A stretch of 64,000 nucleotides of DNA from an uncultured Gammaproteobacteria bacterium (GCA_964452565.1 CAYVLY010000001.1:78638-142637); one strand, 5' to 3'. Numbered from the stretch's first letter, positions 551 to 54,447 are shown. Notes: generated by a model not told the origin, from the sequence alone. Numbers and translations are program-made.

Positions 551-1102
551 TTGAAATATATGCCCGTAACAATAGTTTTTGAGTCGCATTCGACGACATT
601 TGATAATGAAGCCCACAAAGCCTCGGGTTGGAATGATGTTGACCTGTCACCTCTTGGTGAAACTCAGGCTAAGGAGCGTGGTGAGTGCCGGCGTGATGAT
701 GGCATCGATACAGTATTCTGTTCAGATCTAGTTCGATCATATCGAACAGCGCGGATTGCTTTTGAAGGAACCGATATGCCGATTTTTATGGACTGGCGCC
801 TGCGAGAGTGTGATTATGGAGAGATGACACAGAGTGATTCGGACATTGTTGACCCAGAAAAACCAAATCGGATCAAAGAACCTTTTCCAGGTGGAGAGAG
901 TTATGAGCAGTCAAATGAACGAATGAAAAGCTTCTTGCAAGATCTTCTTAAGTTCTATGACAACAAGCGTGTGATGATCGTAGGTCACCGGGCAACACAG
1001 TATGCACTCGAGAGTTTGATTCTTGGAAAACCACTTGAGGAAGTTGTTCCAGCTCCATGGTCCTGGCAGCCGGGTTGGGAGTATGAGTTGAAAAAACTAT
1101 AA
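551..1102 (+). CDS. Histidine phosphatase family protein (phosphoglycerate-mutase-like), non-canonical SHS in place of RHG
   Basis: Aligns to PGM/GpmB N-terminus (ESHSTTFDNEAH..GWNDVDLSPLGETQA), conserved SDLxRSYRTA and VGHRATQYAL second His. Confidence 0.65.
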   Translation: MKYMPVTIVFESHSTTFDNEAHKASGWNDVDLSPLGETQAKERGECRRDDGIDTVFCSDLVRSYRTARIAFEGTDMPIFMDWRLRECDYGEMTQSDSDIVDPEKPNRIKEPFPGGESYEQSNERMKSFLQDLLKFYDNKRVMIVGHRATQYALESLILGKPLEEVVPAPWSWQPGWEYELKKL

Positions 1103-1229
1103 GTTTTCTAGTCAGTTCAGTAAATTAAACAAAAAGCCCCTGAAGAGGTCTTTTTTGCATGTCCTGTATAATCTGACCAAGGCGTCGGGAAATCTGGAAC
1201 ATATAAAAATCAGCTTCAAAGTCACGTCA

Positions 1230-1266
1230 AACCCCGCGCCGCTGGTGCGGGGTTCACTGCGTCTAA
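1230..1266 (+). promoter_or_regulatory. 37-bp hairpin element (AACCCCGC-loop-GCGGGGTT + ttcactgcgtctaa), copy a, 14 nt upstream of TTGACA (1281..1286)
   Basis: 35/37 identical to 2198..2234; same spacing to a TTGACA -35-like box; precedes GC-rich ORF 1373..2092. Confidence 0.6.
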
Positions 1267-1372
1267 GGCTAAGTTTATGCTTGACAAAATGGCATAAATA
1301 GAGTAGCTTTCAGGGTCGTATCCACGGCAAAATCCGTCAAATAGTCCAATAGGGCTGAAAGAGAGAGGAACG

Positions 1373-2092
1373 ATGAAAGACAGACACTGGCAGTCACAGA
1401 TGGTCCTGCTCGGAGCATCAATACAGGGTCAGCAGGTCGCAGATGAGTTGCTCGCTGTTGAGTGGAACTCGCTGACAGCGGACCAGATCCTTGACGACTA
1501 CAGGCCGCTTTGCTGGTCTGCGATCGGCTCGAGCCTCGCACTTGGCGCTGAGGATCTCGAGGGCCTGCAGCAGCAGGTCGTCAGCCTCGCGATCGAGCGG
1601 ATTCAGAACGGTGATATCCAGCCGGTCCAGGTGCTGATCGAGATGGCTGGTGATTCCTGGATCGACGAGGTGGCAGTCGCTGCCCTCGAACAGATCAAGG
1701 GTCAGATCACCGACTCCGCGGCGGTGGTGCAGTTCTGTGCCCTGGTCGATCATCTGGCCGGATTCTCCTTGTCGGGTCTCCGAGACGGCGAGACACAGCA
1801 GGTGCTCCAGCAGATCGTCAACGATCACATGCTGTGCGGTGAGCCCTTCGAAATCGAGCTGGACCACGCCAAGGCTATCGTGCTCGACGTTGGTGGTGAT
1901 CCGGGTCTGGCAATGCTCAGGCTCATGACCGCCGCAATGCCACTGCGTGCGATGCACGAGCTGTGGGGCTACATGTGCTATCATGCCGAGTCTCCGATCA
2001 CCATGGAGAGCCGAGAGACGGCACAGGCAGCCGTCGACATGCTCAACGCCGCCTACGATCGAGAGCTCTTCAGCAACCCCTGGAACGACTAG
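1373..2092 (+). CDS. Hypothetical protein, GC-rich island gene (GC3-rich codons)
   Basis: 239-aa ORF with AGAGGAA RBS-like stretch before ATG; acidic, helical-looking composition; the fully overlapping antisense ORF looks spurious. Confidence 0.5.
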   Translation: MKDRHWQSQMVLLGASIQGQQVADELLAVEWNSLTADQILDDYRPLCWSAIGSSLALGAEDLEGLQQQVVSLAIERIQNGDIQPVQVLIEMAGDSWIDEVAVAALEQIKGQITDSAAVVQFCALVDHLAGFSLSGLRDGETQQVLQQIVNDHMLCGEPFEIELDHAKAIVLDVGGDPGLAMLRLMTAAMPLRAMHELWGYMCYHAESPITMESRETAQAAVDMLNAAYDRELFSNPWND

Positions 2093-2197
2093 CTGTCCCT
2101 GCGTGGTGTGTGGCTACTGCTGGTTCACTCACATTGCTTACTTCTATAGCTCGAGCCCAATCGAGAAATACAAGATAAGTAATGCGACTACTCAATA

Positions 2198-2234
2198 AAC
2201 CCCGTGCCGCTGGTGCGGGGTTCAGTGCGTCTAA
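2198..2234 (+). promoter_or_regulatory. 37-bp hairpin element copy b, 14 nt upstream of TTGACA (2249..2254) - 17 bp - TATTTT (2272..2277)
   Basis: Direct repeat of 1230..1266; followed by a sigma70-like promoter for ORF 2323..2625. Confidence 0.6.
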
Positions 2235-2322
2235 TGTCGAGCGTATTCTTGACAAAGGGCTTTTGAAAGGCTATTTTCTATTTGCTAACCAAATTTGGTC
2301 CTAGTTGACCAGGGGAGAGACC

Positions 2323-2625
2323 GTGAAACCCATTCTTGCGATGACCATGCAGGAGCTGGAGGCAACTGCTGCAGCCAAAGAGGATAGCGACCGTGCGATG
2401 CAGGCATTCCAGCGTATCGTGGATAGTGCAAATTACACTCAGGTGGCGCAGATTTGGGCGCGTATCTGTACATCTGGTGCTTTCATCATCAAGAGTTCTG
2501 ATACTGCGCTGCAGGCATATCACTACATGCGTGGCGAATTTCCTGAGGGGCAATTCGTGATTCCGGCTATCATTCGCGACACCGTTCAATCTGATGTTGA
2601 ATGTGATGGGCTTGATAGCAACTGA
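2323..2625 (+). CDS. Hypothetical small protein (GC-rich island)
   Basis: ORF with AGGGGAGAG RBS 6-8 nt before GTG 2323 (alternative ATG at 2341); promoter upstream. Confidence 0.4.
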   Translation: MKPILAMTMQELEATAAAKEDSDRAMQAFQRIVDSANYTQVAQIWARICTSGAFIIKSSDTALQAYHYMRGEFPEGQFVIPAIIRDTVQSDVECDGLDSN

Positions 2626-3028
2626 CAGTCCGCACAATCCGTAATCGCGGCTTCGGCTGGTTCTACGTGAGCCAGCTGTTTTGTTTCAATATAAAAAAAA
2701 GATGACCACCCTGGGAGTTCCGCAGGGTGGGGCGCGTCGCGTTAAAGCGGGATCGTGTTGCACATGGGCGTCGTGCTGATCTGGCTTATGGCGATAAGCA
2801 AGGTGCGATTTGGGTCTGAGGCGTTTTTGAGCTCAATCACATTTCCACCGCCGTTGTGGATACCTATAACTTTACTCGAGTCGAGATGCCGAAGGCACGT
2901 AGCGCTGCGCACAGCTGCATTTCGATAAAAGTATTATTTCAATATCCATCAGCAGCGTCAACAATTTTATCCACACATGCTTGAAGACCTGCCATACGGC
3001 AGGTCTGCACGATGCAACGCAAGGGCTG

Positions 3029-3283
3029 CTAGTTGGGGTTGTGGACGGCCACGATTGGTTCTTCGAAGACGGTCCTGTCGTACGGGATCATGAGCTTTGT
3101 TCCGCCCTCCTCTGGAGCCAATACGCAGATAGTGGTTGCAGGCCCATCATGGGCGGTCCGCACCTCCACGTTCTGAGCCATACAGTCGACGCACTGCTTC
3201 GGATGACATCGTATTCGGGTGTTCTCGGCACAGCCTCGCAGGAAGGCCGATACAGCATCTTCACCAGTTATCCATCCAGGCAT
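3029..3283 (-). CDS. Hypothetical small Cys-containing protein (CHPKQCVDC)
   Basis: Strong RBS GGAGGTG 4 nt before the ATG on the minus strand (plus 3288..3294); GC-rich. Confidence 0.35.
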   Translation of the reverse strand: MPGWITGEDAVSAFLRGCAENTRIRCHPKQCVDCMAQNVEVRTAHDGPATTICVLAPEEGGTKLMIPYDRTVFEEPIVAVHNPN

Positions 3284-3332
3284 TATCACCTCCAAGTTAG
3301 TGGCTGGATTCCATACAACGTTATCTTGGTTT

Positions 3333-3360
3333 TTGCTCGTGGTCAATTCTGAGGTATAAT
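3333..3360 (+). promoter_or_regulatory. Sigma70-like promoter TTGCTC-16-TATAAT upstream of the ABC exporter operon
   Basis: TTGCTC 3333..3338, TATAAT 3355..3360, AAGGAG RBS 3391..3396. Confidence 0.5.
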
Positions 3361-7368: not shown

Positions 7369-10263
7369 ATGAAAAAAAGTTTTAACAAAATAATTATGAA
7401 GCGCATAATATCTTTTATTTGGATTTTCGCTTTTTTTGCAAGTGCGATTTTACCAGCAATGCATGTTCAGGCAGCTGACATAGAAGCCACTGCTGGAAGC
7501 CTTGTCAAGAACGAAACCCAATCAGCCGTATATTACTATGGCAGCGACGGAAACAGATACGCCTTTCCTAACGAGAAGGTGTTTTTTACTTGGTACGATG
7601 ATTTTGATGATGTAGTCGAAATTTCAGATGACGATATGGCAGATCTGCCATTGTCCGGGATAGTTACCTATCGGCCGGGAATTCGAATGGTTAAGATTCA
7701 GTCAGTACCAAATGTTTATGCAGTTTCAGCTGGTGCAGTTTTGCACTGGGTAACAACAGAAGAGGTTGCTGAGGCATTGTATGGATCAAGTTGGAATGCA
7801 TACATCGACGATGTATCTGATGCATTCTGGTATCACTATTCATTTGGTGGAGATCTAACACTTTCTAGCGGTTATGATCCAGACGAGGAAGAGTCATCGT
7901 CCGATGATATTGATGATGACCTTGATTTACGAGACGATGATGCAGTAGAGGGCTCACCAGAGGCTCCGACCCTTACAGCCCCTACGTCAGCAGAATCTGG
8001 AGAAGAATTTGATATCACCTGGACAGTTGAAGATGACGCGCTCTATTACTTACTACAAACCTCAACAAATGTCTCTTTCGCAGATGCAGATGAGGAGCAA
8101 TTTTCAAATTATCCAGATTTATCAGATGGAGAAACAACTGACAGCATTACAGAAACCACCTATTACAGGATGAGAGGTGATAATAACATTGGACAGGGCT
8201 CCTGGAGTAATGTTGAGACTGTTGTGATCGACACGGGTGAGGAAGACGAGGACTCTGACGGCGATGAAGACGAAGACGAGGATCCGGATGATGACGAAGA
8301 TCCTGATGAGGATGAAGAGCCCGATGAGGATCCAGACGAAGACGAGGATCCGGATGATGACGAAGATCCCGATGAGGACCCAGTCGACGATGATGACGAC
8401 GATGATGTGGATCCATTTGTGATTATCGAAAATGTACCAGATGGCCAGCAGCCACCAATGAACTCATATGGATATGGAGATACAAATTTCTGTGCTCCTA
8501 TTTCAGCTGCAAACGTCACTGAATATTGGGATGTAGTTATGGGTGAGCCAAATGCTGATCAAGTTGATGCTGATTTATTTGTAGTTGAAACAGTCGCAGA
8601 TTTTATTGGATTCTTCATGAATACTAATGGCATGGGAAGTATTAACCGTGACTTTGGCCTTGGTATGGGAACTCCGATAAGTAATATAGAAGACGGAATT
8701 TTGGATTGGGTTGTTTGGGATGGACTAGATGGAACGCAGTACGGATTTGATGATCCATGGTTTGATCTAGCTGGAAAAGTAGATTACACATCTTGGGATG
8801 TTGAGACACTAGACTTTACTGAGTCCTCAGATACGGATGCCTGGGATGATTATATGGATGAGATTGATGCTGGTAGGCCAACAGTCTTGTCATTTGCATA
8901 TTGGAATCCAAAATTTATAGATGAAGATACTGATCATGATGTTAAATTCTACAGTTGGGGCGATCAGATTTATTCATCTGAGGAGTCAGAGTTTGCACCT
9001 GAATTTAATGAGCCAGAATACTGGTACACAGATTCCTCTCCAAAGTATTCAACAGGGCATTCTGTGACTGGTGTTGGTTATGTTGAAGAATATGATGCTG
9101 GAGACGGATACACACGTGATTGGGCAATTGTGCACGATAACTGGGATACAACTGGAGAAAATGTTGCTATTCCATGGGAAATGTGGACAGCAACCACAAC
9201 AATCGAACCATTGGCTAATGCAGTCCCAGATGTACCAGAGCCATCAGGCCTGCCAGAGATCATGGTTGAAGACGTTTCATATACCCTTGAGTGGGATCAT
9301 GTACAAGGTGCAAAGACATATTGTATTGAGTGGGCAACTAATGAAGATTTTGACGATGCCCTTGCATCATGTGCCTGGAATGGTTATGAGACAACTTATG
9401 ATGTGACTCCTAGCATTGACCTGTGGACAGAAGAGCGGTTCCATAGAGTAAAGGCATGTAATGATATGGGATGTAGTGATTGGAGCGATACAGTTGAGTC
9501 AATAGTATTTTGGGACGATCCAGTTGTAGTTCCAGATGAGTCTGCCACGATTGGAGATGCTTTAAATGCCGTTGATGATTATGGAATCGTATATATTGAA
9601 CCCGGAACATATTATGAGGGTGAATTGTCTCTTCCAACTGGTGTATATCTAGCTGGTGCAGGAATTGATGAGGTAACCATTGATTCAACCGGTAGTTATG
9701 TTGGAGCTTATTGTTCAGATTCATATAATGTTATTCATAGTCTAACGATGACCGGTGCTAGAAGTACGCTTGTGTCATGTGATAACGGTGGCATTACTAT
9801 TCAAAAGTCAGTATTAATTGCAGATAATCAAGAAGGCTGGAATGCTAGTGGTGTCTATGCAGCTAATGGAGCCTATGTTGGTCTTTATAATGTTACTGTG
9901 GCAGCTCCAACTTACGGCGATAACGGGGTTATCACAGATACAGATAGTGATAATTATGTGTACGTCTACAACTCAATAATAGAAGGATTCACGCAAGGAA
10001 TATTTATACAGGGAGGTTTATTTATCGGTGATTATAATGATGTAAATGGGCCATATGGTGAAAGAAACTGGTATGGATATGCAACCCCAGGTGCCAATTC
10101 AATAACTGCTGATCCGTTATTCGTGGATCCTGCTGGGCATGATTTCCATTTAGATCCTGCATCTCCGTGTGTTGATGCTGGAGATCCAGAGGCTTGGTAT
10201 GCCGATGAGGATGGAACTATGAATGACATGGGAGCTTATGGAGGAACATTGATGGGGGATTAG
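7369..10263 (+). CDS. Secreted multidomain protein: signal peptide, poly-Asp/Glu repeat linker, papain-like Cys peptidase-like domain, Fn3-like domain, C-terminal right-handed beta-helix
   Basis: Signal peptide MKKSFNKIIMKRIISFIWIFAFFASAILPAMHVQA; Cys motif NFCAPISAAN, His motif GHSVTGVGY, DNWD in papain order; parallel beta-helix repeats and ..DPLFVDPAGHDFHLDPASPCVDAG.. tail. Confidence 0.75.
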   Translation: MKKSFNKIIMKRIISFIWIFAFFASAILPAMHVQAADIEATAGSLVKNETQSAVYYYGSDGNRYAFPNEKVFFTWYDDFDDVVEISDDDMADLPLSGIVTYRPGIRMVKIQSVPNVYAVSAGAVLHWVTTEEVAEALYGSSWNAYIDDVSDAFWYHYSFGGDLTLSSGYDPDEEESSSDDIDDDLDLRDDDAVEGSPEAPTLTAPTSAESGEEFDITWTVEDDALYYLLQTSTNVSFADADEEQFSNYPDLSDGETTDSITETTYYRMRGDNNIGQGSWSNVETVVIDTGEEDEDSDGDEDEDEDPDDDEDPDEDEEPDEDPDEDEDPDDDEDPDEDPVDDDDDDDVDPFVIIENVPDGQQPPMNSYGYGDTNFCAPISAANVTEYWDVVMGEPNADQVDADLFVVETVADFIGFFMNTNGMGSINRDFGLGMGTPISNIEDGILDWVVWDGLDGTQYGFDDPWFDLAGKVDYTSWDVETLDFTESSDTDAWDDYMDEIDAGRPTVLSFAYWNPKFIDEDTDHDVKFYSWGDQIYSSEESEFAPEFNEPEYWYTDSSPKYSTGHSVTGVGYVEEYDAGDGYTRDWAIVHDNWDTTGENVAIPWEMWTATTTIEPLANAVPDVPEPSGLPEIMVEDVSYTLEWDHVQGAKTYCIEWATNEDFDDALASCAWNGYETTYDVTPSIDLWTEERFHRVKACNDMGCSDWSDTVESIVFWDDPVVVPDESATIGDALNAVDDYGIVYIEPGTYYEGELSLPTGVYLAGAGIDEVTIDSTGSYVGAYCSDSYNVIHSLTMTGARSTLVSCDNGGITIQKSVLIADNQEGWNASGVYAANGAYVGLYNVTVAAPTYGDNGVITDTDSDNYVYVYNSIIEGFTQGIFIQGGLFIGDYNDVNGPYGERNWYGYATPGANSITADPLFVDPAGHDFHLDPASPCVDAGDPEAWYADEDGTMNDMGAYGGTLMGD
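8237..8415 (+). repeat. Tandem ~66-bp repeat encoding an EDEDPDDDEDPDEDEEPD acidic low-complexity linker
   Basis: Unit gacgaagacgaggatccggatgatgacgaagatccNgatgagga repeated from 8269 and 8335. Confidence 0.8.
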
Positions 10264-10343: not shown

Positions 10344-11081
10344 CTAGGCCTCGAATTCACCGAGTGTCTTGAGGCATTGGGTCAGGTGGTTCTTGATCGC
10401 GGCTTGGTCGAGGATGAAGCCATGATCTCCATAGACACGATGCACAGTCACGTCCTGGTCACAGTACTTGGCATCGTAGTAGAACAGGTCGTTGTGAGGG
10501 ACGACTGCGACCACAGGGCACTTCAGTGGGCCGGTATTGCCGTGGAAGAAGGGCAAGGGAACCAGCCTCAGGCAGCAGCGCATGGGCTCGGGGCGTACGA
10601 TCTCGATGAGTTCCCGAGCCTTTCTGCTGGAATGGGCTTCGCCACGCTGCTCCCAGTTGAAGAAGGCCCTCCGGATCCTATCGAGGTTGTCGAGTGTCAC
10701 GTTGCCGGCGAAGAACCCGCGGAAGAATTCCCAGGGGATCGTCAGTACGCCGCGGACGTAGCCCCAGAAGGGCAGGCCGTACTGCGTAGTGGCTGCGAGC
10801 AGGATCACACTACTGAAGAGCTTGGGATTGTGGCGCGCGAGACGGCGGAGTGGAACGCCACCCATGGAGTAGGCGATTCCGATCACACCCTCGGTGATGC
10901 CTTCGTCGCCGAGCTGCTGCTTGCACGCGTCGACCATCTCGCGGACAGTGGTACCCTTGTAGCGCATGATGATCACGCGGTAGTCGCGGTCCGTGAAGAA
11001 TTCGATCACGAACTTGAGCCAGAGCTCAACGACTCCGCGGCTCCAGGCGCCAGGGAAAAGAACAACAGTCTTCTGCTTCAT
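10344..11081 (-). CDS. Alpha/beta-hydrolase fold protein (GxSxG nucleophile elbow GIAYSMGG)
   Basis: AAGGAG RBS 6 nt before ATG (MKQKTVVLFPG); GYSMGG motif, C-terminal His (GDHGF); GC-rich codons. Confidence 0.65.
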   Translation of the reverse strand: MKQKTVVLFPGAWSRGVVELWLKFVIEFFTDRDYRVIIMRYKGTTVREMVDACKQQLGDEGITEGVIGIAYSMGGVPLRRLARHNPKLFSSVILLAATTQYGLPFWGYVRGVLTIPWEFFRGFFAGNVTLDNLDRIRRAFFNWEQRGEAHSSRKARELIEIVRPEPMRCCLRLVPLPFFHGNTGPLKCPVVAVVPHNDLFYYDAKYCDQDVTVHRVYGDHGFILDQAAIKNHLTQCLKTLGEFEA

Positions 11082-11189
11082 CTTTGGCTCCTTCTGGTCC
11101 ATCCTTGGACCTGCCAGCTTGGGCGTCATGCCCTTTCTCGAAGCCGAGTACTACACCATGATTAGCGACTTTTGTCAATTAAAACATAA

Positions 11190-11220
11190 AAAACTACTAA
11201 CGTTTAACGTTGGTAGTTTT
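11190..11220. promoter_or_regulatory. 31-bp near-perfect palindrome AAAACTACTAACGTT-T-AACGTTGGTAGTTTT between divergent -35 boxes
   Basis: TTGACA on the minus strand (plus 11174..11179) and TTGACA on the plus strand (11222..11227) flank the palindrome symmetrically; candidate operator shared by divergent genes. Confidence 0.6.
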
Positions 11221-11284
11221 ATTGACATATTCGGCTAATCACAGTACATTTCGTTCTTGTCCCATCACTTGAAAGGAGACTCTC

Positions 11285-12160
11285 TTGAGTGCAACTACAC
11301 TTCTTGTCCTGTTGGCAATGGCGCTCTTCGGGGGCTTTGCTGATGCATTCCGAAAGGTCGTGCTCGGGAAGCTCGGTCTGTATTCAACTGTGGGGTTCAT
11401 CTATCTGGGTTTTGCATTGCCCTTTGGAATCGCCTTCATGATCGTCACCAGAACATATCCGATCATTACTAGCAGTCTGATTGTGGCACACATGACTGCA
11501 CTTCCATTTGTCGGCCTGACAGTGGTTCTGTTCTACAGTGCGTTGCAGAAGACGGACTTCTCGATTTCTGCATCCATCTTCGGATTGGCGCCAGCAACTG
11601 CCATGATTGGAGAGTGGATTATTGGACGTTCCGAGCCAAGCTGGGCTGGAGCGCTTGGGATCCTCGTTGTGTCACTCGGTGCTTATATCCTTCATCTAGA
11701 CGCCTTCAAACATGGGCCGCTGACGCCGTTCAAACGGTTGCTCAAGGATCGGGGCGCCAGGCACGCACTTTACGCAGTGATTGCTATCGCGATCGCTATT
11801 CCATTCCAGCGTGAGGCTGTCTGTGTCTCCAAGAGTCCCGGATTCTGGATGGTCGTGGAGTCGAGCCTATGCATTCCGTTCCTGCTCTTTGGGGTGATCA
11901 AGGAGCGCGCCAAATGGCAGGTCACCACACAAACCAGGCTTTTCACCTTAGGCGCCGGGTCCATGTGGAGTATACATGGGATTTTGCTCTACACGGGTCT
12001 TCAGCTCACGCTCGGTGGATATGTCATGGCCATGCGTTCGTTGGCACTACTAGTCGGCTTCACGCTCGCTTACTTGATCCTCAGGGAAAAGGTGCGTTCG
12101 CGTATTCCTGGAATGCTTGTGATCATCATCGGAACGTTCGTGATCTCGCTCCTGGCTTGA
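11285..12160 (+). CDS. EamA/DMT-superfamily transporter (10 predicted TM helices)
   Basis: TTG start with GGAGA RBS; two repeated 5-TM halves; GC-rich. Confidence 0.65.
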   Translation: MSATTLLVLLAMALFGGFADAFRKVVLGKLGLYSTVGFIYLGFALPFGIAFMIVTRTYPIITSSLIVAHMTALPFVGLTVVLFYSALQKTDFSISASIFGLAPATAMIGEWIIGRSEPSWAGALGILVVSLGAYILHLDAFKHGPLTPFKRLLKDRGARHALYAVIAIAIAIPFQREAVCVSKSPGFWMVVESSLCIPFLLFGVIKERAKWQVTTQTRLFTLGAGSMWSIHGILLYTGLQLTLGGYVMAMRSLALLVGFTLAYLILREKVRSRIPGMLVIIIGTFVISLLA

Positions 12161-12185
12161 TCGCATCAGGTAGCCTCACCTCGGT

Positions 12186-12207
12186 CCTCCCTTGCGGAGG
12201 GCTTTTT
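12186..12207 (+). terminator. Hairpin CCTCCC-ttgc-GGAGGG + CTTTTTG, immediately followed by TTGACG
   Basis: Stem-loop plus T-run after the transporter gene. Confidence 0.55.
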
Positions 12208-12288
12208 GCTTGACGCAATGCTGGAAAAACGCTAACTTTCAAATGTCGCACGGAGCGGCAATAAGTAAATAGGAAGGGAAGTGAGAGA

Positions 12289-12738
12289 ATGGATCCGACT
12301 ACATGGATATGCGCTGCCGTAGCTGGCTTGTTCATCCTGTGGCTGATCGCGAAGGTCGTCAGCAAGCAGCAGACACGGTGGCGTCTTTCTCGCCCGATCA
12401 GCGCGTTCGATAGCTCTGCAGATAAGCTCCTGATCGAGGGTACGATCACGTCTGCGCGTGGCCGAGTTGTTGATACTGGGGAATATCGAAGTATCGGCCC
12501 TGGTGATCTTGCACCAGACATCGCTACATTCTGGACCTATAAGGTGCAGCTCAGCGATGGCACTACAGAGATCGTTCCAGGTATCCGTGAGAGTGTTCGG
12601 AAAAGGAGGGGTCTGCCAAACGACAACTCGGTCGGGCATGTCGCAGTCCTGTTCCTGCGCCGACGTGTCTTCTTCAGACAGAGGTGGGTCCGCTGGAAGT
12701 TGCAGGCCTGGAGCCACGAGGCAATACGCCTAGACTAG
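12289..12738 (+). CDS. Hypothetical membrane-anchored protein
   Basis: GGAAGGGAAG RBS before ATG, N-terminal TM helix; an antisense ORF of similar length looks spurious. Confidence 0.4.
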   Translation: MDPTTWICAAVAGLFILWLIAKVVSKQQTRWRLSRPISAFDSSADKLLIEGTITSARGRVVDTGEYRSIGPGDLAPDIATFWTYKVQLSDGTTEIVPGIRESVRKRRGLPNDNSVGHVAVLFLRRRVFFRQRWVRWKLQAWSHEAIRLD

Positions 12739-13370: not shown

Positions 13371-15401
13371 ATGGAGAAAAAACGAGGATTTCGTACACGG
13401 CGAGGGCTATATGGTGCTTTAATTGCGATTGTCGTGGTTTTTGTTTTAACAGCATCTGCTGCATTTCCTGGACCTTGGAATACGGCCGCGCGAGGCATCG
13501 AAAGCGCAGTTGGGCTAAACATGCCCGAGTTTAATGAAGATGACTTTAAACTCGGACTTGACCTTCAGGGAGGTGTGCATTTGGTATATGAGGCAGATAT
13601 GTCCGCGATCGATGCAGGAGATCGTGCCACTGCAGTTGAAGGTGTGCGCGATGTCATTGAGCGTCGTGTAAACGCATTTGGAGTTTCCGAACCAATTGTT
13701 CAAACAAATATAAACGGCGATCACTTTAGAATCATTGTTGAACTTGCAGGTATTTTCGATATTGAAGAGGCTGTAGGGCTGATTGGAGAGACACCAATCC
13801 TTGAGTTCAAGGTTCCAAAGGAGGATTTGGATGAGGCAGTAGAGTTAACAGAAGAACAGGAGATCCAAATGGCAGAAGCGCAAGCAGAAGAAGAAACTGC
13901 GGCCCTTGAGGTGTTAGATAGGGCACTAGCAGGTGAAGACTTTGGAGATTTGGCTCGCGAGATATCAATATCTTCAACTTCATTTAATAAAGGGTATTAC
14001 GGATATGTAACAGAAGATGACACTGTATTTGGCGAGCTTGTTGATCAAATCCAGAGCGAAAGACTTTCAGAAGGGGTTATTGATGGGCTTTATGAGTACA
14101 ACTCAACTCTTCATATAGTCGAGTACACAGGGACACAAGAGTCCGAGGAGGTCGAATTGTCACATATTCTTATATGCCACTCAGAGTCAACTTCGTGTGA
14201 TTCAGATCGTCCAATTGTTGAAGCGCAGCTTTATATTGAAGAGATACTGGCAGAAGTAACAACTTCAAATTTTGCAGATAAAGCAATTGAGTACTCAGAG
14301 GGTCCATCTGGTCCAGACGGAGGATATCTAGACTGGGTTGTAGAAGGAATGATGGTTGAACCGTTTGAAGATGCTGCATTTGCACTTTCAGATGGTGAGA
14401 TATCTGAGGTTGTAGAAACAGAGTTTGGTTACCACATTATTTATCGATCAGATTCACGAACAGAGACTCAGTACGAGATCTCTCACATTGAAATGGAATG
14501 GACAACAGAATCGGATCTGCTTGATCTAGATCCATGGGAGAACACTGAGCTTTCTGGAAAGCATGTAGATCAGGCAGCAGTTGCATTTGATCCAAACACT
14601 GGAATTCCATATGTATTGCTTAACTTTGATAGTGAGGGTGCAGATTTGTTCACAGCACTTACTGAGGAGCACGTAGGTAATATAATCGGAATCTTCCTAG
14701 ATGGAACAGCAATCTCAACTCCAGTTGTTCAGGATGTAATCTATGGAGGCGAGGCGACTATTACAGGAGATTTCACTATTGATGAGGCAAAGCTATTAGC
14801 TCAGCGACTAAATGCTGGTGCACTACCAGTACCAATCGAACTTTTAAGTCAACAGACGGTTGGACCTACCTTAGGCGCCATATCACTTGAGAGCAGCATT
14901 AACGCCGCACTTATCGGAATTATTTTACTAGCTCTGTTCATGATTACTTACTACCGATTATCTGGAATTTTGGCAGTATTGGCATTAATAGTGTATACGG
15001 GAGTTAACCTAGCACTATATAAGTGGCTTGGAGTTACAATGACATTGGCTGGAATCGCTGGATTTATCCTGTCACTTGGAATGGCAGTTGATGCAAATGT
15101 CCTTATCTTTGAGCGGCTTAAAGAGGAACTTAAGAGTGGACGTGATCTTTCAACAGCGATTGATGAAGGATTTAGACGGGCATGGACATCTATCCGTGAT
15201 GGAAATATTACAACATTGATCGCAGCGGGAGTGCTATTTACACTCAGCGGATTTATCAAAGGATTTGCTCTGACGCTTGCCATTGGTATCTTAGTTTCAA
15301 TGATGACAGCAATCTTTGTGACACGAATCTTATTGCAATGGGTAAGTGGATGGAAACCAGCACAGAAGCATTGGCTCTACGGTGTAAAGAAAACAAAATA
15401 G
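13371..15401 (+). CDS. secD: Protein translocase subunit SecD with inserted tandem parvulin-type PPIase domains
   Basis: SecD N-terminal motifs (LGLDLQGGVHLVYE, GVSEPIVQ, IGETPILEFK) and C-terminal TM bundle (GPTLG..LALYKWLGVTMTLAGIAGFILSLGMAVDANVLIFERL); the insert contains a PpiC-like LSHILICH..GPSGPDGGYLDWVVEGMMVEPFEDAAF..FGYHIIYR. Confidence 0.85.
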   Translation: MEKKRGFRTRRGLYGALIAIVVVFVLTASAAFPGPWNTAARGIESAVGLNMPEFNEDDFKLGLDLQGGVHLVYEADMSAIDAGDRATAVEGVRDVIERRVNAFGVSEPIVQTNINGDHFRIIVELAGIFDIEEAVGLIGETPILEFKVPKEDLDEAVELTEEQEIQMAEAQAEEETAALEVLDRALAGEDFGDLAREISISSTSFNKGYYGYVTEDDTVFGELVDQIQSERLSEGVIDGLYEYNSTLHIVEYTGTQESEEVELSHILICHSESTSCDSDRPIVEAQLYIEEILAEVTTSNFADKAIEYSEGPSGPDGGYLDWVVEGMMVEPFEDAAFALSDGEISEVVETEFGYHIIYRSDSRTETQYEISHIEMEWTTESDLLDLDPWENTELSGKHVDQAAVAFDPNTGIPYVLLNFDSEGADLFTALTEEHVGNIIGIFLDGTAISTPVVQDVIYGGEATITGDFTIDEAKLLAQRLNAGALPVPIELLSQQTVGPTLGAISLESSINAALIGIILLALFMITYYRLSGILAVLALIVYTGVNLALYKWLGVTMTLAGIAGFILSLGMAVDANVLIFERLKEELKSGRDLSTAIDEGFRRAWTSIRDGNITTLIAAGVLFTLSGFIKGFALTLAIGILVSMMTAIFVTRILLQWVSGWKPAQKHWLYGVKKTK

Positions 15402-15404
15402 CTT

Positions 15405-16319
15405 ATGAAGTACTTTGACGTAATAGGAAAATCAAAAATCTGGCTTACAGTCTCTGGAATATTGATTGCGGCATCTATCGTAAGCATTGCAGTCTTTGGA
15501 CTAAATATTGGAATTGACTTTACTGGTGGGTCTCTGATGGATGTCACATTTGACGAGCCAGTCACTATTGATCAAGTTCGTTCTGTATATGAGACCTCAG
15601 AGTATTCAGCAACAGTGCAGCAGAGTAGTGAAACTGAGTATCTCGTCAGGCTTGAATCACTAACACAGGAGCAGCACACACAGCTTTTAGTTGATTTAGA
15701 AGAGCAGATAGGATCATTCGAAGAAAATAGATATGAGACTATTGGATCAGTAATTGGGAGTGAGCTAAAAGCAACATCAGTCAAGGCGATTATTATTTTG
15801 CTTGTATTGATCGTTATCTATGTAGCTTGGGCGTTCCGAAAGGTTTCGGAGCCAGTTAAATCGTGGAAGTACGGTGTTTTGACTATTGTTGCAGCAGCCC
15901 ATGATGTGATTATTCCACTTGGAATTTTCGCAGCACTGGGACATTACCTGGGATATGAGGTGAACACCGCGTTTGTTGCAGCACTATTGACCATTTTGGG
16001 TTATTCGATTAACGATACAATTGTTATCTTTGATCGGACTCGTGAGAATTTAGTGAATAATAAGAATAGCGCAAAGTCATTCAAGGAAGTTGTGAACATG
16101 AGTGTTGCTCAAAGTTTTGCAAGGTCAATTAATACTTCTTTGACAACCTTATTAGTTTTGCTTGCAATTCTCATATTTGGTGGAGAAACAACAAAGCCGT
16201 TTGTACTTGCATTGATTATCGGAGTTATGTCAGGTGCGTATTCATCAATTTTCCTTGCAAGTCCATTGCTTGTGAAATGGGAAGAGTGGAAGCGCAAGCG
16301 TGAGTCAATCACAGAATAA
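15405..16319 (+). CDS. secF: Protein translocase subunit SecF
   Basis: SecF motifs GIDFTGGS, 6-TM C-terminal domain; adjacent to secD. Confidence 0.85.
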   Translation: MKYFDVIGKSKIWLTVSGILIAASIVSIAVFGLNIGIDFTGGSLMDVTFDEPVTIDQVRSVYETSEYSATVQQSSETEYLVRLESLTQEQHTQLLVDLEEQIGSFEENRYETIGSVIGSELKATSVKAIIILLVLIVIYVAWAFRKVSEPVKSWKYGVLTIVAAAHDVIIPLGIFAALGHYLGYEVNTAFVAALLTILGYSINDTIVIFDRTRENLVNNKNSAKSFKEVVNMSVAQSFARSINTSLTTLLVLLAILIFGGETTKPFVLALIIGVMSGAYSSIFLASPLLVKWEEWKRKRESITE

Positions 16320-16332
16320 AAAAGAAATAAAA

Positions 16333-16358
16333 AACTCTCGACTTCGGTCGGGAGTTTT
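16333..16358 (+). terminator. Hairpin AACTCTCGAC-ttcg-GTCGGGAGTT + TTTTATTTT
   Basis: 10-bp stem with one G-U pair, T-run. Confidence 0.6.
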
Positions 16359-16431
16359 ATTTTAAATTCATCCCCAATCCACTATTCCAGATTCCTGATT
16401 CTAGATCCCTACGTGCTATAATACACATGAT

Positions 16432-18033
16432 ATGGAGGCCATTTATCAATGGTTTACAAACTACTTAGCAACAACCCCACCTGATCAGCTTGGTGTTGAT
16501 ATTTTGCTTTACTTTGGATGGTTCCCGATTTTTTCGATTGTCGTATGGGGATTTTTGCAGATTTGGACAGATGTAAAACAAGGGCAGTATTGGGAAAAGC
16601 TTGAGTGGGATTTACTCGCAGTTACAATCCCACAAGATGCAGTTCAGACCCCAAAAGGAATGATGAACTTCTTTAACAACCTTTCAGGAAGTAAGTCTGC
16701 AATCACTTGGAAAGAAAAATGGTTCTGGGGAAAGTTTCAGGCCTACTTTACATTTGAGATTGTAAGTAACGGTGGACATATCCAGTATTACATTCGTACT
16801 ATCAAAAAATACCGTGATCTTGTCGAAGCAGCGCTTTATGCTCAGTATCCAGAAGCTCAGATCGTTGAGGTTGAAGACTATGTTGATCAGATTCCAAATG
16901 ATTTTCCAAACGATGAATGGGACTGTTTTGGAACAGAGCTCAGCATGTCCAAGGATCATATCTACCCAATCAAGCGCTTTGAAGACTTTGAGCATGTTGG
17001 TGAGAAGGATCTCAGATTCAAAGATCCGATCCTTCCAATGCTTGAGATGATGGGAAAGATGAGACAGGGTGAATATTACTGGATCCAGCTTTTGATTATG
17101 GGACCTGAGGGTCAGGATTGGCGTAAAGATGCAGCTAAATGGATGAAAAAGATGTATGGAATCGAGGATAAGAAAAAGAAGGGTCTCATTGAGAGTTCTA
17201 TTGGCTGGGTTCCAGCTGGTATTTTTGAACAAGTAACAGGGACGGCATTTGGTGCAGGGGATGAGCCTTCAGCAGATGATTTCAGAATGTGGAAAATGAC
17301 ACCAGACGAGCAAGATACTTTAAAGGCAGTTAATGAAAAATCAAAGGAGATAGGATGGCTTTCAAAGATCAGAATGGTTTATTGTGCAAGAAAAGAGGTA
17401 TTTCGAAAGGGAACAATTGCTTCAATGACAAAGGGGATCTTTTTACAGTTTGATTCTAGGATGAATAAACTCGGACTCACCGCTAATGTTACGACGAAAG
17501 ATGATTACTTCTGGCAGGAATGGCAAATGCCTGGAAAACAAAGGACTTTGGTTAAGAAATATAAGAACAGGTCCTTTGGTGCGGGGACAACCCCTTACAT
17601 TCTTTCATCTTCAGAGCTTGCAACTTTATGGCACTTTCCACCAGCTGACGCTAGGACACCAGTTCTTACTTCTCTTGGCGCGCGTATGGCAGAAGCTCCT
17701 GTTGAGCTAGGATTTGCACGTGATGAAGAATCGATTTTACCGAACATTGAGAGAAGCTCATCAGATGTTGAGGGTTCTGCGCCAGTTCGTGCAGAGGCTG
17801 CTCCAGAGTTTGTACCAGAGACTCCTACACCAACAGCGCCAACTACATCTGCACCAGCAGAGCAATTTGAACCTACAGTTCCTGAACCAGCCGCACCAAC
17901 TCAGGTGGAAGAGGTGTTAGCACCTGATAAGCCAGAATTTCAAGCTGGCATGCCAGCCCCAATGCCACCAGGGCTTGATATATCTGATATAGATGTCGAA
18001 CAAGCTGGGGCGCCTGACGATTTACCAGTTTAA
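16432..18033 (+). CDS. Membrane protein homologous to the N-terminal domain of the fused VirD4-like protein 38857..41355; Pro/Thr/Ala-rich C-terminal tail
   Basis: TGCTATAAT extended -10 ends 8 nt before ATG; IQYYIRTIKKYRDLVEAALYAQYPEAQIVEVEDY matches ITFYITVPRYMQNFVEQQLHAQYSAAAIEPVKDY, and ELATLWHFPPADARTP matches EELAGLWHLPIPSTETP. Confidence 0.6.
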   Translation: MEAIYQWFTNYLATTPPDQLGVDILLYFGWFPIFSIVVWGFLQIWTDVKQGQYWEKLEWDLLAVTIPQDAVQTPKGMMNFFNNLSGSKSAITWKEKWFWGKFQAYFTFEIVSNGGHIQYYIRTIKKYRDLVEAALYAQYPEAQIVEVEDYVDQIPNDFPNDEWDCFGTELSMSKDHIYPIKRFEDFEHVGEKDLRFKDPILPMLEMMGKMRQGEYYWIQLLIMGPEGQDWRKDAAKWMKKMYGIEDKKKKGLIESSIGWVPAGIFEQVTGTAFGAGDEPSADDFRMWKMTPDEQDTLKAVNEKSKEIGWLSKIRMVYCARKEVFRKGTIASMTKGIFLQFDSRMNKLGLTANVTTKDDYFWQEWQMPGKQRTLVKKYKNRSFGAGTTPYILSSSELATLWHFPPADARTPVLTSLGARMAEAPVELGFARDEESILPNIERSSSDVEGSAPVRAEAAPEFVPETPTPTAPTTSAPAEQFEPTVPEPAAPTQVEEVLAPDKPEFQAGMPAPMPPGLDISDIDVEQAGAPDDLPV

Positions 18034-23929: not shown

Positions 23930-23966
23930 AAAACCCCGCGACGGCCGAGAGCCTTGCGGGGTTTTT
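23930..23966 (+). terminator. Hairpin AAAACCCCGC..GCGGGGTTTTT
   Basis: 10-bp stem + T-run; same stem type as the 1230/2198 elements. Confidence 0.65.
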
Positions 23967-24022: not shown

Positions 24023-24097
24023 GGCCCTATCGTCTAGCGGCTAGGACGCCGCCCTCTCACGGCGGAAACCCGGGTTCGATTCCCGGTAGGGTCACCA
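24023..24097 (+). tRNA. tRNA-Glu (anticodon CTC), encoded CCA
   Basis: Cloverleaf: acceptor ggcccta/tagggtc, anticodon stem ccgcc/ggcgg with loop ctCTCac, T-arm cgggttcgattcccg; promoter TTGCTT-16-TATACT at 23979..24006. Confidence 0.85.
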
Positions 24098-24100
24098 ATA

Positions 24101-24126
24101 AGAAAGCCACCGTAAGGTGGCTTTCT
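24101..24126 (+). terminator. Hairpin AGAAAGCCACC-gtaa-GGTGGCTTTCT + tattgg
   Basis: 11-bp perfect stem directly after the tRNA. Confidence 0.6.
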
Positions 24127-24133
24127 TATTGGT

Positions 24134-24225
24134 CTGCTGAATCGAACCCGGGTTGTGCAGGGTTTGATATCCCGGCTGTGTCCTTCCGAAGCCCGAAGGG
24201 CGAAGGAGGGTAGGGTCACCATAAG
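24134..24225. repeat. tRNA-fragment scar: inverted T-arm copy, T-arm-like segment, embedded GC-rich hairpin element (24181..24210) and degenerate tRNA 3'-end copy tagggtcacca-taag (24211..24225)
   Basis: gaatcgaacccggg is the reverse complement of the tRNA-Glu T-arm; gggtagggtcaccataag matches the tRNA 3' end with one deletion. Confidence 0.55.
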
Positions 24226-41355: not shown

Positions 41356-41370
41356 AAATTAGAAAGCATG

Positions 41371-41398
41371 AACCGCACCTCAAGGGGTGCGGTTTTCG
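41371..41398. terminator. Bidirectional terminator AACCGCACC-tcaagg-GGTGCGGTT + TTTCG
   Basis: 9-bp stem between convergent genes. Confidence 0.65.
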
Positions 41399-41414: not shown

Positions 41415-41942
41415 CTACTGGGCGTAGTATAGAGTGCTTGTGTACGATATGCAGTTGTAGAAGAAGTGAAGTGCCCAGCAGCAGGCTAGTCCGACCAGGA
41501 TGCCCCAACCACCTCTCCAGCCGCCGCACTTCAGATAAACGATATGTAGCGCGATTCCGAGCGGCAGGTAGGTGAAAAGCGCCATCAGGACTCCCATCGA
41601 GCCGAGTGTATGGAGAATTGAGAAGATCACGGATGAAGTGATGATCAACGGCAGTATCACGAACCTATGTGTTCCAGCGATCCACTTCGCGACAGCAGTA
41701 GTCAGTACCCGTCCCACCAGTTCTTCGAAAAGAGACTGGAGGGGTGTGACGAAGATCATGACCAGGATCATGTCGTGAACCAGCTCAGGGTAGCGCTCGG
41801 GCCGCGGCTCGTGCATGACGTAGATTGCGACCAGTGGTTTGATCTGTGCGTAGATCGTCAGGGCGAGAAGCGTTATGCCAAGCATTACGATCAGCTCGCT
41901 GGCCTTGGGCTTTTCTTCGATCCAGTTCAGGAACGTGTTCAC
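41415..41942 (-). CDS. CPBP-family intramembrane glutamic endopeptidase (CAAX protease-like)
   Basis: Motifs EELVGR, FSILH, HFFYN in the canonical order; GC-rich. Confidence 0.65.
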   Translation of the reverse strand: MNTFLNWIEEKPKASELIVMLGITLLALTIYAQIKPLVAIYVMHEPRPERYPELVHDMILVMIFVTPLQSLFEELVGRVLTTAVAKWIAGTHRFVILPLIITSSVIFSILHTLGSMGVLMALFTYLPLGIALHIVYLKCGGWRGGWGILVGLACCWALHFFYNCISYTSTLYYAQ

Positions 41943-44248: not shown

Positions 44249-44533
44249 ATGAAGGGTATGGCCAATTGGTGGTGCTTCAAGCTGCTCGTGAGCCTCTGGA
44301 TCCGAGTATGCGCCACCTCCCGCTCTGACGAGCTGGCAACAGATGATGCTGCATTGGTCGAAGATACCAATGAGGCATCTGAGCTACTCCCACCCCTGCT
44401 GGAGCTTGTGTACGACAGCGGAGCCCCTCAGACACGAGGACTGCGTCTTCCAGAGACGCGCGATGATCTCATTCGTCGCCGATCCCATCTCGAGCTTAAG
44501 TGGAGTCGATCCGGGCGTCGCCAGGCCAGCTAG
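44249..44533 (+). CDS. Hypothetical small protein (GC-rich, next to tRNA-Gln)
   Basis: Good promoter and RBS; terminator-like hairpin CAGCGACCCA-tctc-TGGGTCGCTG at 44547..44570. Confidence 0.35.
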   Translation: MKGMANWWCFKLLVSLWIRVCATSRSDELATDDAALVEDTNEASELLPPLLELVYDSGAPQTRGLRLPETRDDLIRRRSHLELKWSRSGRRQAS

Positions 44534-54171: not shown

Positions 54172-54447
54172 CTACATCCTGGAGATGTTGCCCTTGCGGG
54201 TGTCGGTGCGGTAGTAGCCCCCGATATTGTCGCCGTCTTTGTTGTGGCCTTCGTAGTTCCAGCTTTCGCCGGATCCGTCCTCGCGCTGGACCGAGTCGAT
54301 GCCGACCTTGATCTGACTACTGCCATCCGGTGTCGTGACCTCGAAGGTCACGAAGCGGCGGCTTGATGCGGTGTTGTCGAAGAGGCCGAGCATCAGGTCC
54401 CATTTGCTGGGGCCGTTGACGATCTTGTGCGTGGGGTTGGAGGACAT
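54172..54447 (-). CDS. Hypothetical small protein (GC-rich mini-island)
   Basis: RBS AAAGGGGTGA 3 nt before ATG on the minus strand; GC3-rich codons. Confidence 0.45.
   Translation of the reverse strand: MSSNPTHKIVNGPSKWDLMLGLFDNTASSRRFVTFEVTTPDGSSQIKVGIDSVQREDGSGESWNYEGHNKDGDNIGGYYRTDTRKGNISRM

Follow-up and report, generated by a model that had tools for sequence, protein, structure and literature searches.

The region at positions 1100–3360 of the window (the whole stretch of DNA analyzed, 64,000 nt) lies downstream of secA in a genome of Candidatus Uhrbacteria, a group of the Candidate Phyla Radiation (CPR), and carries a 60-nt direct repeat, with one copy in front of each of two consecutive plus-strand open reading frames (ORF1 and ORF2). 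Each copy combines a G+C-rich hairpin, a conserved 12-nt tail, a 14-nt linker and the motif TTGACAAA, at which a predicted promoter begins. With moderate confidence, we consider this repeat to be a duplicated transcription-unit boundary, in which a 3′-end RNA hairpin with its conserved tail is joined to a promoter of the host type, and which has been kept by selection. On balance, the block at 1100–3360 represents this genome's form of a clade-specific, fast-evolving accessory block downstream of secA that occurs in a group of Candidatus Uhrbacteria. The block would be composed of short monocistronic units, namely ORF1, ORF2, a small-RNA candidate on the minus strand and ORF3.

The core of the repeat is a 37-nt element, AACCCCGCGCCGCTGGTGCGGGGTTCACTGCGTCTAA, that is found at 1230–1266 and, with two mismatches (35/37), at 2198–2234, as the initial annotation had described. 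With up to three mismatches allowed, the 64 kb contain no match besides these two, against an expectation of 0 from 100 shuffles. By repeat finder and self-BLAST, the similar stretch is 60 nt long and 85% identical (1229–1288 and 2197–2256), and the only other internal repeat between 1100 and 3400 is a palindrome at 2982–3009 that matches its own reverse complement. The motif TTGACAAA starts exactly 14 nt after both element copies, in agreement with the spacing noted earlier. The nine differences between the 60-nt copies are distributed unevenly: the linker of 14 nt accounts for seven and the 37-nt core for two, whereas TTGACAAA has none (8/8), the contrast between core and linker (35/37 versus 7/14 identical) having a Fisher p of 8e-4, uncorrected for window choice. 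Past TTGACAAA, as read from the sequence, the similarity between the copies falls to chance level. Since the differences are clustered, the pattern is one of constraint rather than that of a fresh neutral copy. A peptide-coding repeat was considered and rejected: the copies lie in different frames of the overlapping short ORFs 1155–1301 and 2182–2304, and the repeat therefore encodes no conserved peptide. With the loop and one tail position left free, the 37-nt element has no match in viral contigs, GTDB species representatives or JGI metagenome contigs, and it is likewise absent from 50 related loci. Furthermore, the tail motif TGCGTCTAA has no meaningful further occurrences, and the hairpin–promoter module matches no Rfam family.

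In both copies, the element folds into a stem of 11 pairs with a 3-nt loop, so that the hairpin claimed in the initial annotation is present, but with a geometry other than the 8 pairs and 9-nt loop given there. The minimum-free-energy folds of 56-nt contexts have energies of -25.3 kcal/mol for copy 1 (z -3.7) and -20.6 kcal/mol for copy 2 (z -2.4). The stem contains one G·U wobble pair in copy 1 and two in copy 2; these pairs form in plus-strand RNA only, as in the minus-strand version they become A-C mismatches that interrupt the stem, and pairing is thus better on the plus strand. The sole stem difference between the copies is a C to T change that turns a G-C pair into G·U. Two hallmarks of intrinsic terminators are thus found here, a stable G+C-rich stem-loop and a position downstream of a gene on the same strand, and similar stems occur in other probable terminators of the window (23932–23963, 41370–41395). 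The designation "terminator-like" is apt with respect to an RNA-compatible G+C-rich stem-loop at a gene boundary, but not with respect to the U-tract, which is missing after the hairpin; consequently, the hairpin is not a canonical intrinsic terminator. Downstream of both hairpins, the -35 and -10 hexamers of the predicted sigma-70 promoters are separated by 17 nt, within the 16–18 nt range used for such promoters, and the clean promoter that had been recognized at the second copy matches the consensus at 10 of 12 positions. TTGACAAA itself recurs in this genome as an extended -35 motif and is present at 8 sites of the window.

According to the explanation that we favor, the 11-bp stem-loop and the 12-nt tail would form in the plus-strand RNA and act as the 3′-end element of the upstream transcript, either as a non-canonical terminator or as a 3′ stabilizer or insulator, and 26 nt past the hairpin a host-type sigma-70 promoter would start the next gene. 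The analysis establishes the repeat itself, a hairpin compatible with RNA pairing, matches to the promoter consensus, the contrast in composition, the relationships of the protein families and a like architecture in relatives; termination of transcription at the hairpin, its initiation at the promoters and a function for the tail are inferred. The junction may have been copied with its gene, by tandem duplication of a gene unit together with the upstream junction, or alone, as a case of promoter reuse, and both copies would since have been retained by selection. The C-terminus of ORF1 matches the profile of the ORF2 family, which is consistent with a distant paralogy of the two downstream genes: the C-terminal ~50 residues align with the core of the ORF2 family, including an invariant tryptophan, with an hhalign score of 26.6 (E 0.0019) that is reached by none of 300 shuffles (mean 12.0, maximum 19.5). 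Judging by these alignments, ORF1 and ORF2 are probably very distant relatives, not collinear paralogues.

The same architecture is found in related genomes. A Logan contig of the same organism (L001) carries both element copies, 968 nt apart, and its full SecA, used as query, is 91, 80 and 69% identical to that of the Candidatus Uhrbacteria relatives L002, L003 and L005, respectively, and 66% identical to that of a more distant relative, L015. GC-rich blocks that hold ORF2- and ORF3-related genes directly follow secA in L002 and L003 too; the block of L003 lies directly upstream of the orthologous HlyD/ABC exporter, and the L002 contig ends before that point. L042/L043 represent a further variant of the block with a single ORF2-family gene. 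Such blocks occur at the corresponding place in three related lineages, and in them every gene is provided with a hairpin and a TTGACAAA-type promoter of its own. The number of ORF2-family genes is three in L002, one in L003 and one in L043, and the relatives thus differ by whole gene-plus-hairpin-plus-promoter units. The proteins of the block diverge faster than their neighbors (25–32% versus 65–81% identity). In L002, consecutive ORF2-family genes are separated by the hairpin GGCTCCAC(T)GGAGTC(A)GCC with a T-tract, a module that is present twice and lies 28–32 nt before a promoter of the form TTGACAAAAAGCC(C/T)...GGGGCTATTTT (also written TTGACAAAAAGCC...GGGCTATTTT). This hairpin is 97% identical between L002 and L043, as compared to 69% for the adjacent gene. 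The promoter type TTGACAAA...GGCTATTTT also precedes ORF2-family genes in L002, L003 and L043. In these relatives, a near-perfect palindrome, for example AAAATAGCCC AAAA GGGCTATTTT, lies between the -35 and -10 hexamers and overlaps the -10 hexamer (L003 12825–12853; L002 14015–14043 and 14704–14733; L043 887–913), of which copy 2 in the window retains GGCTATTTT only; this palindrome could be an operator.

A second type of hairpin, with the general form AGACC(C/T)GCC, loop, GGC(G/A)GGTCT and a TC..GCAT. tail, is located downstream of GC-rich genes on the minus strand, in the window as well as in L002 (two copies of 35 nt with 1 mismatch) and L042/L043. Between lineages, its tail is conserved and its loops vary, and a stem pair has undergone a compensatory change from C-G to T-A; the two L002 copies are followed by different promoters at different distances. 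In addition, a hairpin between two minus-strand GC-rich genes of L042, GACCCCGCC ACAAGAT GGCGGGGTT CAGT, shares the stem core and the start of the tail with the window element (ACCCCGCC...GGCGGGGTTCAGT), with its outermost pair changed from A-U to G-C. A TTGACA-17-TATCTT promoter starts 10 nt after the stem of this hairpin, compared to the 26 nt between stem and -35 hexamer in the window element. In these blocks, units are as a rule bounded by a hairpin with a short conserved tail and then the next promoter, and duplicated boundaries are common. As the distance between hairpin and promoter varies across cases, a role at the 3′ end of the upstream transcript is favored over that of a positioned activator site. 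Gain and loss of units via repeated junctions would be the simplest explanation of the differences in unit number between relatives. The cassette-like modularity proposed in the initial annotation accordingly fits the relatives, insofar as their blocks differ by whole units. No integron, phage or plasmid signature was found.

Several observations weigh against a duplicated boundary of this kind. In both copies, the first 8 nt after the hairpin contain 2 T, where a U-tract would have at least 5 in 8 nt, and the terminator scan listed neither element hairpin. The canonical terminators of this genome consist of an A-tract, a stem and a T-tract, and such terminators are used in the same block only ~400 nt away (2654–2686 on the plus strand, 2730–2693 on the minus strand). 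A plain structural hairpin would need no identical loop and tail, which makes sequence-specific recognition by a protein possible. The promoter of copy 1 matches the consensus at 9 of 12 positions with a weak -10 hexamer (3/6) and does not appear in the list of the consensus scan. With respect to the copying route, BLASTP and BLASTN find no similarity between ORF1 and ORF2, and the first 172 residues of ORF1 give no signal against the ORF2-family domain; with no BLASTP alignment and an unrelated ORF1 N-terminus, duplication of the whole unit is unproven. Finally, the comparisons cover a 64-kb window out of a contig of ~709 kb, which limits the view of the genome-wide distribution of the element.

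The block differs from its surroundings in composition. The initial annotation had described the segment as more GC-rich than its flanks, which is borne out by a GC content in 300-nt windows of 0.50–0.63 from ~1350 to 3300 versus 0.39–0.46 in the flanks. The GC-rich third codon positions (GC3) reported for ORF1 were also recovered (0.76 versus 0.31–0.41 in the host genes for SecA, the histidine phosphatase, HlyD, the ABC ATPase and the permease); the values at the three codon positions are 0.675/0.371/0.758, that of the second position being ordinary. The high-GC donor to which these codons had been likened is not supported, as homologues are found only in the same clade and related GC-rich genes occupy the same loci in relatives. 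Searches for donor homologues returned the query, two weak repeat-driven proteins or syntenic relatives of the same clade, and blastn of the whole block against phage and plasmid records gave no match. A second GC-rich block is located at 10344–12738 and comprises genes for an alpha/beta hydrolase (minus strand), an EamA-type transporter (GC3 0.62) and a 149-aa membrane protein. The hydrolase (10344–11129, GC3 0.78) has two homologues in the protein collection, both of them syntenic orthologues (L003, L047), and scans of viral contigs with ORF1 and the hydrolase gave no match. When 4-fold degenerate sites at identical amino acids are compared between the window and L003, the core genes have the same base at 28–38% of the sites (saturated), with a GC content at these sites (GC4) of 0.18–0.36. 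The hydrolase has the same base at 35% of the sites, which is saturated too, with GC4 values of 0.72 and 0.75, and in L047 its GC4 is 0.61 as compared to 0.14–0.22 in neighboring genes. Synonymous sites that are saturated yet GC-rich in the window, L003 and L047 argue against a recent import, and, judging by these comparisons, the GC-richness is old and maintained, or renewed within the clade, and not the mark of a fresh import.

At least five GC-rich islets are present in the window (1373–3286, 10344–12738, 41415–41942, 44249–44533 and 54172–54447), of which the last three are isolated ORFs on the minus (GC3 0.71), plus (0.61) and minus (0.87) strand, respectively. ORF 54172–54447 has a TGTGGATAA box and a TTGACAAAA promoter, with two hairpins downstream. 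In L015, three GC-rich orphan ORFs at 14660–16500 lie just upstream of a 118-aa gene and secDF, which is the position of the second block of the window. No GC-rich block follows secA in L005. The islets might constitute a separate compositional compartment that is actively held GC-high in an AT-rich, reduced genome, a proposal that we put forward as speculative and unlikely. In that case, its upkeep would depend, for example, on biased gene conversion at recombination-prone hairpin junctions or on selection via a dedicated expression system, and the hairpin-plus-tail elements (of the AACCCCGC... and AGACCCGCC... types) would be the cis sites of this system, for unit shuffling or for factor-dependent 3′-end formation. 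Genomic islands are frequent in Patescibacteria (PMC12455944), and no description of a persistent GC-rich islet pattern was met in that study or in a limited further check of the literature.

The conserved loop and tail would also fit a shared regulator binding site, as suggested in the initial annotation. The 25-bp palindrome and its tail, which span about -86 to -50 relative to the predicted starts, would then be bound as double-stranded DNA by a transcription factor that controls ORF1 and ORF2 jointly. Loop and tail are identical base for base apart from one tail position, the distance of 14 nt to the -35 hexamer has remained fixed while the linker diverged, and the position suits an upstream activator. 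Moreover, TGTGGATAA is found just upstream of several -35 hexamers within GC-rich islets, so promoter-proximal factor sites do exist here. However, the arms are unusually long and G+C-rich for an operator, and the sole stem change keeps the pairing in RNA but breaks the symmetry of the DNA. The related L042 hairpin has a different distance to its -35 hexamer, the duplicated minus-strand hairpin-plus-tail of L002 occurs at two different promoter distances, and no DNA-binding protein is recognizable in the block. A regulator site is the weaker reading, and we regard it as rather unlikely. It is quite improbable that the repeat is a neutral leftover, that is, a short duplication or gene-conversion patch without function between ordinary promoters. 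Such a patch would agree with the presence of two copies only and none in relatives, and with TTGACAAA being merely the common -35 motif of the genome, but it does not account for seven of nine differences falling in one stretch of 14 nt, for the recurrence of the architecture in relatives with other sequences, or for the compensatory changes between lineages in hairpins of this kind.

Mobility of the block or of the element has less in its favor. A recent high-GC import built of mobile cassettes (integron-like, or a small mobile element) with the hairpin as recombination site would explain the strongly GC- and GC3-rich block, the differences by whole units between relatives and the displaced copy of the secA 3′ end just downstream of secA (512–550). 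It is nevertheless very improbable: no homologue was found in another lineage, virus, phage or plasmid, and no recombinase turned up between 4 kb upstream and 12 kb downstream. The element carries no attC core sites, each gene has its own host-type promoter, and GC-rich relatives at the same locus are still GC-rich despite saturated synonymous sites. The least probable of the alternatives, in our estimation, is a miniature repeat (REP/REPIN- or MITE-like, or the end of an IS200/IS605/IS91-type element) that carries or abuts a promoter. An imperfect palindrome with a conserved flank, in which G·T pairs are tolerated on one strand, upstream of unrelated-looking genes is what such a repeat would look like, but the two copies in 64 kb both lie in one block, none occurs in relatives, GTDB representatives, JGI metagenome contigs or viral contigs, and no transposase or RAYT-like gene is nearby.

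Among known systems, putative mobile promoters (Matus-Garcia, Nijveen and van Passel 2012, as summarized in PMC3575422) are defined operationally by upstream regions of one genome, at -150 to -50 from the start codons, that are 80% or more identical across 50 nt or more, and most published families are pairs within one genome. The copies described here are 85% identical over 60 nt, at -144 to -85 and -126 to -67 from the start codons, which agrees with this operational definition, and resemble mobile promoters as a pair of similar upstream segments within one genome that includes the -35 region and precedes genes without obvious similarity. Unlike in mobile promoters, the genes are adjacent and maybe very distant paralogues, and the conserved part is mainly the hairpin upstream of the promoter. 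Because the genes are adjacent and possibly paralogous, the copy could be a relic of tandem duplication instead of the product of independent promoter movement. A Rho-independent terminator with the next promoter close by, as in compact genomes, likewise places a G+C-rich stem-loop 26 nt before the next -35 hexamer, and several terminator–promoter junctions are present in the window, e.g., at 23932–23963 before a tRNA promoter; the repeat differs from these by the missing U-tract and by a 12-nt tail that is conserved in sequence. Tandem arrays of fast-evolving paralogues in variable islands are comparable in that the locus between secA and the HlyD/ABC exporter is variable and its number of units changes, but the block is GC-richer than the genome, lacks mobility genes and a detectable donor, and has kept its composition over saturating divergence. 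Integron cassettes share serial small ORFs of unknown function, a hairpin element at each boundary and a content that varies among relatives. In contrast to these, the units here have their own promoters and lie on both strands, neither an intI integrase nor attI was detected between 4 kb upstream and 12 kb downstream, and neither of the attC core sites GTTRRRY and RYYYAAC occurs in the element in either orientation, as read from the sequence.

Table 1. Features of the block downstream of secA (positions in the window)
Feature	Position	Strand	Description
Hairpin, copy 1, AACCCCGCGCC GCT GGTGCGGGGTT	1230..1254	+	11 pairs, 3-nt loop; 127 nt after the histidine-phosphatase stop (1102)
Conserved 12-nt tail, copy 1, CACTGCGTCTAA	1255..1266	+	11/12 match to copy 2
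Predicted sigma-70 promoter of ORF1, TTGACA-17-TAGCTT	1281..1309	+	Read from sequence
ORF1	1373..2092	+	239 aa, all-alpha, GC3 0.76, essentially orphan
Hairpin, copy 2, AACCCCGTGCC GCT GGTGCGGGGTT	2198..2222	+	105 nt after ORF1 stop
Conserved 12-nt tail, copy 2, CAGTGCGTCTAA	2223..2234	+	
Predicted sigma-70 promoter of ORF2, TTGACA-17-TATTTT	2249..2277	+	Consensus scan, 10/12
ORF2	2323..2625	+	~100 aa from GTG 2323; a start at ATG 2347 instead yields the 92 aa of the database entry
Canonical intrinsic terminator of ORF2	2654..2686	+	10-bp stem, then TTTTGTTT; conserved in L002 and L043
Small-RNA candidate, ~230 nt	2695..2926	-	Conserved non-coding unit with own promoter and terminator
Small-RNA terminator, CCACCCTGCGGAACTCCCAGGGTGG then T8	2730..2706 (hairpin)	-	
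Small-RNA promoter, TTGACG-17-AATAAT	2961..2933	-	
TGTGGATAA box	2967..2975	-	Lies 5 nt ahead of the -35 hexamer from which the small RNA would be transcribed
Second hairpin type, AGACCTGCC GTAT GGCAGGTCT with TCAAGCATG tail	2985..3006	-	Downstream of ORF3
ORF3	3029..3286	-	85 aa, GC3 0.63, CHP-x2-C-x2-C motif; second clade-restricted family

The features of the block are compiled in Table 1. From 4 kb upstream to 12 kb downstream, the surrounding genes encode a ribosome hibernation factor, SecA, the histidine phosphatase, HlyD, an ABC ATPase and a permease, as well as a 964-aa protein, the hydrolase, the EamA transporter and SecDF. None of the island proteins matches Pfam, PADLOC or PHROG at library thresholds. 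Among 1.84 billion representatives, ORF1 retrieves itself and two weak repeat-rich proteins only, and these two matches, which involve LapA-domain repeats and low-complexity sequence, were judged spurious. Its structural model is all-alpha and too poor for a structure search (predicted local distance difference test, pLDDT, 57). ORF2 belongs to a family of clade-restricted small helical proteins, most of which have acidic C-terminal tails. A profile search of 5.8 billion proteins yielded six clusters for this family, namely the ORF2 of the window and five on contigs of Uhrbacteria relatives, and the pairwise comparison of ORF2 with the L003 gene gives an E of 2e-11. The AlphaFold2 (AF2) model of ORF2 has five helices (pLDDT 72) and no significant match in the PDB, with weak TPR-like matches only (E of at least 0.28). 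ORF3 has counterparts in L002 (pairwise E 3e-8) and in L003.

The minus-strand unit between ORF2 and ORF3 is a candidate small RNA. The stretches 2650–2807 and 2959–3007 are the only ones of the block that are conserved with relatives at the DNA level, and with the intervening sequence they make up the unit. Counterparts of the unit (window 2695–2961) are located at 15290–15560 in L002 and at 1574–1835 in L043 with 76–82% identity, as compared to 25–32% amino-acid identity of the neighboring genes. The unit has no conserved reading frame and matches no Rfam family. In its consensus fold, 8 pairs are changed on both sides, although three sequences are too few for a firm claim of covariation. 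A scan of metagenomes with the conserved pattern of the unit found no contig beyond one already known. The TGTGGATAA box beside the promoter of the unit has kept its position in L002 and L042/L043, and the sequence occurs six times in the window (2967, 12814, 31094, 46277, 54069 and 54592) against 0.62 expected. Four of the six copies lie in or beside GC-rich islets, three of these at 0–10 nt from a -35 hexamer. In relatives, TGTGGATAA is found at about 15560 in L002, at about 1036 in L042 and upstream of the hydrolase in L047. It is the complement of the DnaA-box consensus TTATCCACA, and it may be a regulator site for the islet genes.

Further repeats were observed at the end of secA and elsewhere. 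In the region 430–550, secA ends in a C-terminus of the L003 type (...KPKKYKNCHGKNN, then the stop), and ~50 nt past this end lies a displaced, intact-looking end of the L002 type, GGATCG...GCCTAA, encoding GSGKKYKKCHGA and a stop (512–550). A 30-nt repeat, GTCCTTCCGAAGCCCGCAGGGCGAAGGAGG, is located between the secA end and the displaced copy (480–509) and occurs again, with 97% identity, at 24180–24209, where it closes a 111-nt insert after a tRNA gene (24085–24221). On either side of this insert lies a direct repeat of the tRNA 3′ end, GGTAGGGTCACCA (24085–24097 and 24209–24221), and the insert may be the scar or an abbreviated version of an element with gene 3′ ends as its target. At 8238–8400, an acidic repeat with an 18-nt period (runs of D, E and P) is part of the 964-aa protein, which is secreted and encoded at 7369–10263.

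The junction itself is an ordinary kind of feature, of the sort left by promoter reuse or by tandem duplication of a unit, and the repeat illustrates how genes that lie close together, each with its own promoter, are insulated and copied in a CPR genome of reduced size. More useful is the setting, a clade of Uhrbacteria in which fast-evolving, GC-rich genes that are restricted to the lineage are retained at fixed loci. A full synonymous turnover without drift to the AT-rich composition of the host runs counter to the common interpretation of anomalous GC content as a sign of recent transfer. The block is thereby a concrete case for asking what maintains compositional heterogeneity, be it biased gene conversion, selection or repeated exchange within the clade. 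In addition, the conserved small-RNA candidate offers a rare handle on regulation in uncultured CPR bacteria.

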